DNA of 64,000 nucleotides from an uncultured Chloroflexia bacterium (GTDB lineage: Bacteria; Chloroflexota; Limnocylindria; Limnocylindrales; CSP1-4). The stretch lies in NCBI GenBank assembly GCA_963829295.1, contig CAWHHU010000006.1:198200-262199 (forward strand), written 5' to 3'. Of this stretch, positions 58,043 through 61,576 are shown piece after piece (position 1 is the stretch's first letter; each line of letters begins with the position of its first letter). The notes under the pieces are model-generated. The model was not told where the DNA came from, searched no databases, and saw only the letters and a list, made by a program, of their open reading frames with translations. A program made the position numbers and the translations under genes.

Positions 58043-58804
58043 TCATGGCCCGACTGTGACCAGGCTTCGGATCTTGTCCAGCGTCGAGCTGCCAACCACC
58101 TTGCGGGTGGCGAAGTCATCGAGCGACGCGAACGGTTGCTGCTCTCTCGCGGCGATGATCTTGGCGGCCGTCACCGGGCCGACACCGGGCAAGGTGTCGA
58201 GCTGCGCGGCGGTGGCTCGATTGAGGTCGACCGGCGTCGTTGCCAGCGATCCACCCGGGGCTGCCGTTCCTGTCGCTGCTGGAGGCGAGTCACCGCGCGC
58301 CGGGACGTGAATCTGATCGCCATCGCGGACGACGGCCGCCAGGTTGACCTCCACATCGACACGTTCGGCATCGACCCTGGCGCTGTAGCCTCCGGCGGCC
58401 GCGACGGCATCGCCCACGCGAGCGCCGGACGGCAGGCGATAGACGCCCGGGTTGGCCACGGCGCCGCCGACATCGACCACCACCACGGCGGTCCTGCCAG
58501 CGGGGCTCGCCACCACCGCGCCGGCCGGCTGCTCCGACGACACGGCGGCGAGCGGGGCGTCAACCAGGACGCCTGGATCGGGCCTCATGGCGATCACGAG
58601 GGCCACGACCGTGACACCCGCGGCAAGCAGCACGCCGGAGATTGCCAGCCACGGGACAGCGGCCGGCGACGTCTCCCGGACGGCGGGCTCGGTTTCGGTT
58701 TCCTCGAGGACGCGCCACGGCGCGCTGGACGGCTCCACGGTCTCGGTCGACTCCGGGGCGGGCCGGCGGGCGATGGCGTCGAACATCCGCCTCGTTGGGG
58801 GCAC
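58043..58804 (-). CDS. comEA: ComEA (SLBB domain + C-terminal helix-hairpin-helix DNA-binding competence protein)
   Basis: Transmembrane anchor, 'VVVDVGGAVANPGVYRLPSGARVGDAVAAAGG' (SLBB) and 'VDLNRATAAQLDTLPGVGPVTAAKII' (HhH). The start is likely ATG 58786 rather than GTG 58804. Confidence 0.75.
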   Translation of the reverse strand: MPPTRRMFDAIARRPAPESTETVEPSSAPWRVLEETETEPAVRETSPAAVPWLAISGVLLAAGVTVVALVIAMRPDPGVLVDAPLAAVSSEQPAGAVVASPAGRTAVVVVDVGGAVANPGVYRLPSGARVGDAVAAAGGYSARVDAERVDVEVNLAAVVRDGDQIHVPARGDSPPAATGTAAPGGSLATTPVDLNRATAAQLDTLPGVGPVTAAKIIAAREQQPFASLDDFATRKVVGSSTLDKIRSLVTVGP

Positions 58805-58999: not shown

Positions 59000-59407
59000 T
59001 CAGGCGCTGAGCTGCTCCCACTCGACCCAGCGAGTGCCGTTCCACCAGCGGTGCCAGGTCAAGCCGTCGACTCCGGCGGCGAACACGTCGAGTCGATCCG
59101 GACCCGAGGAGGAGGCTGCGGGCGACGGCCCATGCACCAGCTTCCCACCCAGCGACTCCCATGGGTGCCAGCTCTCACCATCCCAGTATCGGTCCCACAA
59201 GGCGCCGTCATCGAAGACGGCGAAGACTTCCATCCGGTCGGGCGCCCAGGCTGTCACGGCGGGCGCGGATGCGAGCGCGCCCCCAAGCGACTCGGGGGCC
59301 TGCCAGGCATCGCCCTCCCGGGCTCGATGCCACAGCACCCGGGCGGCGCCGACCCAGAACAGGTCGATCCGACCGGGTGCCGCGGACACGGCTGCGACGT
59401 GACTCAT
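59000..59407 (-). CDS. Three-repeat AAL/RSL-type fucose-binding-lectin-like beta-propeller blade protein
   Basis: Three ~44-aa repeats: 'IDLFWVGAARVLWHRAREGDAWQAPESLGG', 'MEVFAVFDDGALWDRYWDGESWHPWESLGG' and 'LDVFAAGVDGLTWHRWWNGTRWVEWEQL'. These match the '(I/V)R(V/F)Y...G.(I/L).E..WDG.GW' blade consensus of Aleuria AAL, Ralstonia RSL and Burkholderia BambL. Confidence 0.6.
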   Translation of the reverse strand: MSHVAAVSAAPGRIDLFWVGAARVLWHRAREGDAWQAPESLGGALASAPAVTAWAPDRMEVFAVFDDGALWDRYWDGESWHPWESLGGKLVHGPSPAASSSGPDRLDVFAAGVDGLTWHRWWNGTRWVEWEQLSA

Positions 59408-59434
59408 CGTTGCCTCACCTCGGATCCGCCGCCA

Positions 59435-59683
59435 TCAGGCTGGCCGACCCTCGATGCGGGTCGCGATCGTGCAGGTAGCCTCCGAGACCGCATGCATAAC
59501 ATGACTGGCGGAGCGCACCGGCCGGGCGAGCCAGGCACGGACCCGGCTGAAGCGCGGCCCGGGTGCATCCCAGCCCTCGCCCCACTGGTCTTGGGCGAGA
59601 CGCCACTGCAGGGTCGCCCGTTCCGCTTCGCGAGCGCGCTGGTTGGCGAGGTCGATCGCGACCATCGCGTGGTACATCCACAT
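59435..59683 (-). CDS. Hypothetical 83-aa Trp-rich protein
   Basis: ATG with a GGAGG RBS 9 nt upstream; 'MWMYHAMVAIDLANQRAREAERATLQWRLAQDQWGEGW...'. It lies between the small peptide gene and the lectin-like gene on the same strand. Confidence 0.45.
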   Translation of the reverse strand: MWMYHAMVAIDLANQRAREAERATLQWRLAQDQWGEGWDAPGPRFSRVRAWLARPVRSASHVMHAVSEATCTIATRIEGRPA

Positions 59684-59723
59684 CTTCTCTGTTCCTCCGG
59701 GTGATCCGGTCCGTGGTCGTGGA

Positions 59724-59825
59724 TCAGCGGGACTCGAAGCCGTCGCGGCTTTCGTACCCTGCGATTGCCGCCACCAGGCCGAGCAGCGCGAGCATGGACA
59801 GTGCAATGGGGACCAGAACGTCCAT
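59724..59825 (-). CDS. 33-aa hydrophobic membrane peptide (not in the ORF track)
   Basis: ATG with GGAGA 9 nt upstream; 'MDVLVPIALSMLALLGLVAAIAGYESRDGFESR'. It is the first gene of the minus-strand mini-operon. Confidence 0.45.
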   Translation of the reverse strand: MDVLVPIALSMLALLGLVAAIAGYESRDGFESR

Positions 59826-59859
59826 GGTGAGTCTCCGTTGGCTCCAGGTGTAACCGGAT

Positions 59860-59935
59860 AACGTGTCTTTATCAGTTACGAACTGTACCGCCTTGCCTGT
59901 AACCTGTCAATAGGTTTACAGTGGTTACGCGTCCA
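59860..59935. promoter_or_regulatory. GTAAC/GTTAC-box cluster with near-perfect palindrome CTGTAACCT-gtcaat-AGGTTTACAG (59897-59921) in the divergent intergenic region
   Basis: Read directly; relatively AT-rich. It lies between the peptide/lectin operon (minus) and the zf-CGNR regulator (plus). Confidence 0.5.
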
Positions 59936-59957
59936 AAGACGGCATGAATTAACCGAT

Positions 59958-60641
59958 ATGAGCACTCCGACCACCTCGACCACCTCCACCAGCAGTCCGA
60001 TCTCGATCGTCGACGGGCCACCCACCGGCTCGAGCCACGCCCACAGCGTTGGGATCGACGCCTGCCTCGACCTCATCAACAGCGAGGAGCTCACGGATGG
60101 GGTGCCCGAGGAGCACCTGCCCACGGCGGACGATGCCGTGGCGTACTTCACGCTGCGCGGCCTCGCTCACGAGCCTTCGCTGCGCGCGCAGGTGGCCCGT
60201 GAGGGCGAACAGGGGTGGCTGGACCGCATCCATCGGATCCGCGCCGCCCTCCGCGAGGTATGGGACGCGGAGGTGGAGGAGCGCTTCCCGGATCAGGACG
60301 CGCTCGACCTGGTCAACGCCGCGCTTCGTCAGGCTCCCCGGATCGAGCTGATCCGGAGCGACACCTGCTGCGGCGTCGGGCATCGCCATTCGGAGGACGA
60401 TCCCACCGGCGAGGCGCTTGCGCGCGTGATCCAGCCGCTGATCGACGCGATCGCGGCCAATGCCACCGATCGCTTCCGGATCTGCGCCAACGACGGCTGT
60501 CGCTGGGTGTTCGAGGACACCTCGCGCGGCGGCCGTCGCCGCTGGTGCGACATGACCTCGTGCGGCAACCGGGCCAAGGTCCGTCGATACCGGTCACGAC
60601 ACCAGGGTGCCCACCCCGGTGACGAGCGGGTCGCCGGCTAG
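59958..60641 (+). CDS. ABATE-domain / zf-CGNR zinc-finger putative transcription regulator
   Basis: C-terminal 'RICANDGCRWVFEDTSRGGRRRWCDMTSCGNRAKVRRYR' (CGNR zinc-finger motif). Confidence 0.75.
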   Translation: MSTPTTSTTSTSSPISIVDGPPTGSSHAHSVGIDACLDLINSEELTDGVPEEHLPTADDAVAYFTLRGLAHEPSLRAQVAREGEQGWLDRIHRIRAALREVWDAEVEERFPDQDALDLVNAALRQAPRIELIRSDTCCGVGHRHSEDDPTGEALARVIQPLIDAIAANATDRFRICANDGCRWVFEDTSRGGRRRWCDMTSCGNRAKVRRYRSRHQGAHPGDERVAG

Positions 60642-61576
60642 CCCTTCTCGAGCAGCGGCCGGACCTCGGTCGCGAACCGGGTCATCGACTCCTCGTCATA
60701 GTTCGCCGGCACGCCAGCGATGAGATGGCGGTAGCCGATCTCGAGGTACGGAGCGAGCTTCGCGGCCACGTCCTCGGGGGTGCCAACCGGCTGGTCCTCC
60801 CAGTGCCTGGCAACGCGATTTCGGTCGAACGCCTCGTGGAACAGCCGCTCCGCCTCGGCACGATCGTCGCGGATGAACACGGTGCCCACCCCGGTTGAGC
60901 GCTCGATCTCGGCCGGATCGCGTCCGACCGTCTCGCAGTGCCGGAGCAGCACCTGCTCCTTGTGACGCACCTCGGCGATGCCGCCACCCACGTTGTTCAT
61001 GTCCGCGTACTGCGCGACGAGCTTGAGGGTGACCTTCTCCCCGCCGCCGCCGATGCAGATCGGGAGATGCGGCTGTACCGGCCCCGGCAGGTTGCGGGTG
61101 CCTTTCGCACGGTAGTGGGGGCCCGTCGCCGACGGCTCGCCGCCGTCGAGCATCCCGCGCATGACGGGCAGCGCCTCGCCCAGCCATCGCAGGCGCTCCG
61201 GGAAGCCGGACCCGAACTCGAGCCCGAACGCCTCGTGCTCCTCCTCGAACCAGGCGCCGCCGATGCCGAGAATGGCGCGCCCGCCCGAGATGTGATCGAG
61301 CGTCGTGGCGAGCTTGGCGGTCAGGGTTGGCTCGCGGAACGTGTTCGCGCCGACCATCAGGCCGACGTGGATCTGCTTCGTCGCCTGCGCCCAGGCCGTG
61401 ATCGTCAGCCAGCCTTCGTAGTTGGGTCCGTGCGAGTCGCCCACGATCGGGTACAGGTGATCCCAGGTCCAGAGGGTGTCGTAGCCGAGCCGGTCGGCCC
61501 GCACGCCGGCTTCGTGCAGCCGCGGCCATTCGGTGTACTGGTTCCAGCAGAGAGCGCCGATCTTGATCCTGCTCAT
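60638..61576 (-). CDS. LLM-class (luciferase-like) F420-dependent oxidoreductase
   Basis: TIM-barrel LLM family features: 'LWTWDHLY' and 'GRAILGIGGAWFEEEHEAFG'. Confidence 0.75.
   Translation of the reverse strand: MSRIKIGALCWNQYTEWPRLHEAGVRADRLGYDTLWTWDHLYPIVGDSHGPNYEGWLTITAWAQATKQIHVGLMVGANTFREPTLTAKLATTLDHISGGRAILGIGGAWFEEEHEAFGLEFGSGFPERLRWLGEALPVMRGMLDGGEPSATGPHYRAKGTRNLPGPVQPHLPICIGGGGEKVTLKLVAQYADMNNVGGGIAEVRHKEQVLLRHCETVGRDPAEIERSTGVGTVFIRDDRAEAERLFHEAFDRNRVARHWEDQPVGTPEDVAAKLAPYLEIGYRHLIAGVPANYDEESMTRFATEVRPLLEKG

Follow-up and report, generated by a model that had tools for sequence, protein, structure and literature searches.

The window, a 64,000-nucleotide stretch of DNA, carries a divergent gene arrangement in which a putative zf-CGNR regulator lies back to back with two very small genes and a lectin-like gene. 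This raises the question of what such a regulator controls, and whether the lectin belongs to its target. Limnocylindria are abundant in soil and freshwater, and the window comes from a soil genome of this class of Chloroflexota, not from the Gram-positive-type or actinobacterial genome assumed in a preliminary description of the locus. We put at roughly 0.6 the probability that the locus is a regulator-target module of Limnocylindria, in which CGNR acts on p33-p82 and which takes in the lectin in this genome and in about 30 other species.

Organization of the divergent locus

The 135-aa and 33-aa reading frames were found as first described, on the minus strand, closely spaced and preceded by ribosome-binding sites. 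The frame between them, reported as 83 aa, is likewise a gene on the minus strand, with a length of 82 aa (Table 1). Gaps of 40 nt separate p33 from p82 and of 27 nt p82 from the lectin gene, and a GGAG-type ribosome-binding site stands ahead of each gene. Our scan of the p82-lectin gap in the window found neither a terminator nor a promoter-like site, and no terminator is predicted between the lectin gene and comEA; this layout is consistent with co-transcription of p33, p82 and the lectin gene. The intergenic region between p33 and CGNR is 132 bp long with 49% GC, compared with 65–78% in the flanks, and was rightly called unusually AT-rich. The divergent gene does encode a zf-CGNR/ABATE protein (Pfam E-values of 2e-19 and 4e-16), scoring 69.5 bits for zf-CGNR (PF11706, cut-off 24) and 60.2 bits for ABATE (PF07336, cut-off 24.4), with both the CGNR motif and the Cys ligands present. 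Synteny places the whole module as an insertion in the leuS...comEA-comEC region.

Table 1. Genes and control elements of the locus, in window coordinates
Feature	Position	Strand	Basis
comEA (SLBB and HhH), next same-strand gene downstream of the lectin	58043..58804	-	synteny leuS...comEA-comEC
Lectin homologue, 135 aa, three-blade PLL-type (PF26607/DUF346, PropLec7A), without signal peptide	59000..59407	-	
p82, 82 aa, Arg-rich, two-helix hairpin model; no known family	59435..59683, from first ATG	-	
p33, 33-aa single-pass membrane peptide, conserved tail G-x-(D/E)-(S/T)-R-(D/P)	59724..59825	-	
O2, operator-like unit GTAAC-N20-GTTAC, in the predicted p33 5' leader	59850..59879	.	30-locus alignment: TAAC and GTTA invariant
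Predicted sigma-70-type promoter of p33-p82-lectin: TTGACA, 17 nt, TACAGT	59882..59910	-	promoter scan
Possible CGNR promoter: TTGCCT, 18 nt, TACAGT, facing the p33 promoter	59893..59922	+	inferred only
O1, operator-like unit GTAAC-N20-GTTAC, which overlaps the p33 promoter's -35 and upstream stretch and extends towards the CGNR start	59899..59928	.	
CGNR, 227-aa ABATE + zf-CGNR, putative ligand-responsive DNA-binding regulator	59958..60641	+	Pfam
LLM, luciferase-like (LLM class) oxidoreductase, neighbour	60638..61576	-	Pfam Bac_luciferase 1.7e-43

CGNR, p33 and p82 form the conserved core

We compared 80 species-level loci, each holding a lectin gene; the Limnocylindria sampled here are solely metagenome-assembled genomes. 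CGNR was found by tblastn in 46 loci and p33 of the window type in 36. A p82 homologue is present in 41, adjoining CGNR wherever CGNR was detected, and a 30–42-aa transmembrane peptide lies ahead of nearly all p82 homologues. Neighbourhood conservation had been suggested as a check on the locus, and the small genes and their order are indeed kept: CGNR on the opposite strand, p82 and lectin follow one another in 31/80 loci, with 22–125 nt separating p82 from the lectin downstream of it. What does not vary is the core, CGNR set divergently against p33 and p82, to which the lectin need not belong. What had been described as lectin-centred is thus a module that often carries the lectin at its downstream end but can do without it.

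The lectin could be still less than this, a syntenic neighbour only, with CGNR-p33-p82 a self-contained cassette that moves within the leuS-LLM-lectin-comEA region while the lectin goes with LLM or is independent. In 20 of the 80 loci the lectin is immediately preceded by LLM, and eight of these have p82 before LLM (e.g. L047 and L028); the cassette also precedes LLM in L089. Elsewhere it lies between LLM and the lectin, as in the window, or after the lectin (L040, L076, L086). In L086 and L089 the two genes overlap, the stop of LLM with the start of the lectin. No TAAC-N20-GTTA site occurs upstream of lectin genes separated from the cassette, and the lectin genes on the far side of CGNR (L040, L076, L082, L086) have no boxes upstream. 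Furthermore, 22 of the 80 lectin loci have none of the p82, LLM or CGNR-cassette neighbours. However, the 31 loci in which the lectin follows p82 closely on the same strand include clades with very divergent p33 and p82; in the eight p82-before-LLM loci and L089 the lectin still lies downstream of the proposed CGNR-controlled promoter, whose strand it shares; and in the window nothing resembling a terminator or promoter intervenes between p82 and the lectin. A purely positional association therefore seems to us rather doubtful, and we favour a module that includes the lectin where the gene follows p82.

For the 22 loci that lie outside this synteny, clustering of ORFs yielded mostly spurious high-GC ORFs, and a BNR/sialidase-like propeller was the only plausible recurrent neighbour.

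Paired operator-like units lie between the divergent genes

The promoter scan predicts one sigma-70-type promoter for p33 (10/12 matches; 1 found against 0.1 expected). In an alignment of 30 loci whose CGNR proteins are 36–88% identical to that of the window, its TTGACA never varies, and in at least 90% of the loci the second hexamer has A at position 2 and T at position 6. The candidate promoter of CGNR was read from the sequence and from a conserved CTTGCGCGTAACC...TAnAGTGGTTAC block; it falls below the threshold of the scan, which did not call it.

The symmetric GTAAC/GTTAC boxes noted earlier between the divergent genes can be refined to two GTAAC-N20-GTTAC units, a pattern found twice in the window against 0.02 occurrences expected from shuffles. 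The palindrome singled out in the preliminary description, TGTAACC-N7-GGTTTACA at 59898-59920, is present, but as a conserved operator it does not hold: relatives share its left arm alone, the palindrome as named is largely clade-specific, and GTAAC-N20-GTTAC is conserved instead. Across the 30 loci, TAACCAC..TA..TTGACAGGTTAC..GCAAG..TAAC..GTTA is invariant. A census of 723 kb of related loci yielded 87 occurrences of TAAC-N20-GTTA, 71 of them within 160 nt upstream of p33 and the remaining 16 arranged two per locus in eight further loci with the same TTGACAGGTTA promoter block. Every site checked falls in the CGNR-p33 intergenic region, and two units are present in 35/36 p33 loci.

The arms of O2, which sits in the leader predicted to be transcribed, could pair as a 5–7 bp stem, as would be expected of a leader hairpin or riboswitch-like element in the p33 5' UTR. 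That the boxes are RNA elements rather than protein operators is nevertheless highly improbable. O1 shares the geometry of O2 yet lies upstream of the transcription start, and neither the intergenic region nor the leader has an Rfam match at E≤1. Moreover, no pair shows a compensatory change, covariation does not rise above that of shuffles, the four core pairs are invariant and the outer pairs are broken in 9–20 of the 30 sequences. We accordingly treat the two units as candidate protein operators.

CGNR proteins have been described as dimeric, probably DNA-binding and ligand-sensing, sequence-specific DNA binding and the response to ligand being so far a prediction for the ABATE/zf-CGNR family (PMC2954205). 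Jann_2411, which resembles the window CGNR in both domains, the CGNR motif and the Cys ligands, was proposed to be a dimeric ligand-responsive DNA-binding regulator, and a membrane-protein gene is among its predicted STRING partners. A structure of the ABATE/CGNR family has been available since 2009, and our literature search on CGNR operators returned nothing past that structure paper. Whereas this literature describes no operator or target, the comparative data presented here point to a deeply conserved pair of candidate operators and to p33-p82 as a fixed target. The GTAAC-N20-GTTAC units indirectly back DNA binding by CGNR; the boxes could also belong to another factor.

In the model that we propose, a strong sigma-70-type promoter divergent from CGNR would drive p33 and then p82, and the same promoter would also drive the three-blade lectin 27 nt past p82. 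CGNR, a dimer in the one solved homologue, would bind the two GTAAC-N20-GTTAC operators. O1 would place it across both the -35 of the p33 promoter and the region where CGNR's own gene starts, and O2 across the first ~30 nt of the p33 leader. So bound, it would hold down transcription in both directions until a ligand binds the ABATE domain. With a 30-bp operator candidate, invariant across a bacterial class, beside a fixed target, the CGNR family would become directly testable.

p33 and p82 are genuine genes

Both p33 and p82 were called in independent assemblies, and their dN/dS values (0.11–0.44 for p33, 0.23–0.61 for p82) identify them as genuine genes under purifying selection. In p82 the N-terminal helix and the C-terminal end, AAC.AATRIEGRxA, are conserved; its structure model consists of two long helices and has low global confidence (pTM 0.38). 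The protein has no match in Pfam, NCBIfam or PADLOC. A search with the single sequence recovered 4 homologues only, and a profile search of 1.84 billion representatives returned just 31 at E≤1e-3, so the p82 family is narrow. A profile search with p33 returned 431 proteins with E≤1, down to ~1e-11 for the top match, with no Pfam domain in any of the 120 matches listed. When the window p33 and p82 were searched together with nine divergent relatives, none fell into a Pfam or NCBIfam family, chance-level matches being confined to p33-type peptides. A defence-system assignment was rejected, PADLOC giving a generic oxidoreductase match for LLM and chance matches for p33. The two genes are therefore unannotated conserved genes outside the Pfam, NCBIfam and PADLOC families. 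Since in-frame p33-p82 fusions exist (P0255 and P0270), the two products probably act as a membrane-anchored pair.

The 135-aa protein is a homologue of PLL-family lectins

The 135-aa protein consists of three ~45-aa repeats, 35–40% identical to one another, which AlphaFold2 folds into 12 strands and three four-stranded sheets (pLDDT 97). It was aptly described as a three-blade propeller-lectin homologue, and the absence of a signal peptide is borne out by a first beta-strand that begins at residue 2. The model displays the four-stranded W-motif blade fold of the PLL family. PLL, PHL and PLL2-5 in the PDB were matched by phmmer at 2e-47 to 1e-31, and in a profile search at 1.8e-46. The strand aligned with the RSL/AAL binding strand reads GR(I/L/M)(D/E)(L/V)F, as in PLL/PHL of Photorhabdus, whose blades follow the same W-motif, GR(L/I)(E/D)VF...(D/N)xxLW...WxxW.SLGG; in place of their seven blades per chain, the protein holds three repeats. 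The NCBIfam beta_propeller_lectin model matches at 1.2e-11 with 44 bits against a cut-off of 200, and such full-length scores fall far below the cut-off because the 135 aa make up just 12 strands in three repeats. Precomputed annotations assign homologues to PF26607, some of them also to PF03984, and the protein's own Pfam match is only to DUF346 at E 0.04. Judged by its sequence, the protein is a homologue of the Photorhabdus PLL-family lectins.

The preliminary description had seen in it an AAL/RSL-type fucose lectin (PF07938, PropLec6A) that would pair up into a six-blade propeller and so stand midway between RSL and AAL, a form not described before. Remote homology to this group is real: the family profile matches KozL (PDB 6HTN) at 2.9e-8 and SapL1, FleA, AAL and tandem RSL at ~1e-4, with E-values from 3e-8 to 0.2 over AAL, FleA, RSL and KozL. 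The W-D/N-G-x-x-W of blades 2 and 3 also aligns with CWDGxGW of RSL, and the principle of a short-chain propeller is shared with RSL/BambL (two-blade, trimeric) and AAL/FleA (six-blade). Membership is nonetheless very unlikely. The PF07938 search proposed as a check gave no match at E≤1, and the seven-bladed PLL/PHL lectins are by far the closest relatives, with matches ~40 orders of magnitude stronger and identities of 30–35% versus 13–21%. In the alignment, the position of the binding-strand Arg of RSL (IRVY) is taken by D15, E60 and D107, an Asp or Glu in all three blades, and that of the RSL Glu by H27, D72 and H119; in RSL, Arg, Glu and Trp form the fucose site. KozL itself, a 143-aa fucose lectin from Kordia belonging to the AAL/RSL family (PropLec6A), is 17–19% identical to the window protein and has an Arg/Glu/Trp fucose site in contrast to the PLL-type Trp pair. 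As its three-blade structure has been solved, an intermediate between RSL and AAL would not be new. Bonnardel et al. are said to have found in 2019 that the Kordia lectin forms a dimeric six-blade propeller.

Predicted sugar site and assembly of the lectin

Within the PLL family, W71/W83 and W118/W130 align with W343/W355 of PHL, which belong to the hydrophobic (H) sugar site located between blades. All of the 57 homologues compared have W130, and W71, W83 and W118 are each conserved in 90% or more. Blade 1 differs from PLL/PHL in that W26 is present while the second Trp is replaced by Pro38, and the hydrogen-bonding Thr of PHL and the residues of the polar site are not conserved. With the Trp pair of the hydrophobic fucose/O-methyl-sugar site retained in blades 2 and 3, the protein most likely serves as a small, multivalent binder of carbohydrates.

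A propeller fragment of this kind might instead serve as a cytoplasmic protein-interaction or scaffold module, a role with which the missing signal peptide, the one degenerate hydrophobic site of three, the altered polar site and the low NCBIfam lectin scores would agree. We consider it unlikely: the binding Trp pair is strongly conserved in two blades and all close structural relatives are lectins. PLL lectins, too, have no recognisable signal peptides, and PLL2 and PLL3 are found extracellularly (PMC12203525). An extracellular role for the carbohydrate binder that we favour would, given the missing signal peptide, need a non-classical release route.

With only three complete four-stranded blades per chain, the lectin has to oligomerise before a propeller can close; six blades would come from a dimer and nine from a trimer. 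Designed three-blade WD40 fragments, engineered and unrelated in sequence, assemble into a nine-bladed trimer (PDB 6R5Z) and so set a precedent for an oligomer other than a dimer. Since three-blade PLL-type chains cannot make the seven-bladed ring of PLL/PHL, the oligomer would show how much symmetry tolerance blade families have, and such a chain could serve as a compact multivalent scaffold. We suggest, tentatively, a wider reading in which CGNR-p33-p82 is an undescribed ligand-responsive module giving the ABATE/CGNR family its first readable operator and fixed target, the lectin is the first PLL-type non-heptameric propeller (six or nine blades) formed by oligomerisation, and p33 and p82 might have a part in envelope signalling or in releasing the lectin by a non-classical route. 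The setting also departs from that of PLL/PHL, the lectin gene of the window lying downstream of a promoter proposed to be controlled by CGNR and in a free-living Chloroflexota lineage, whereas the PLL host is an insect pathogen.

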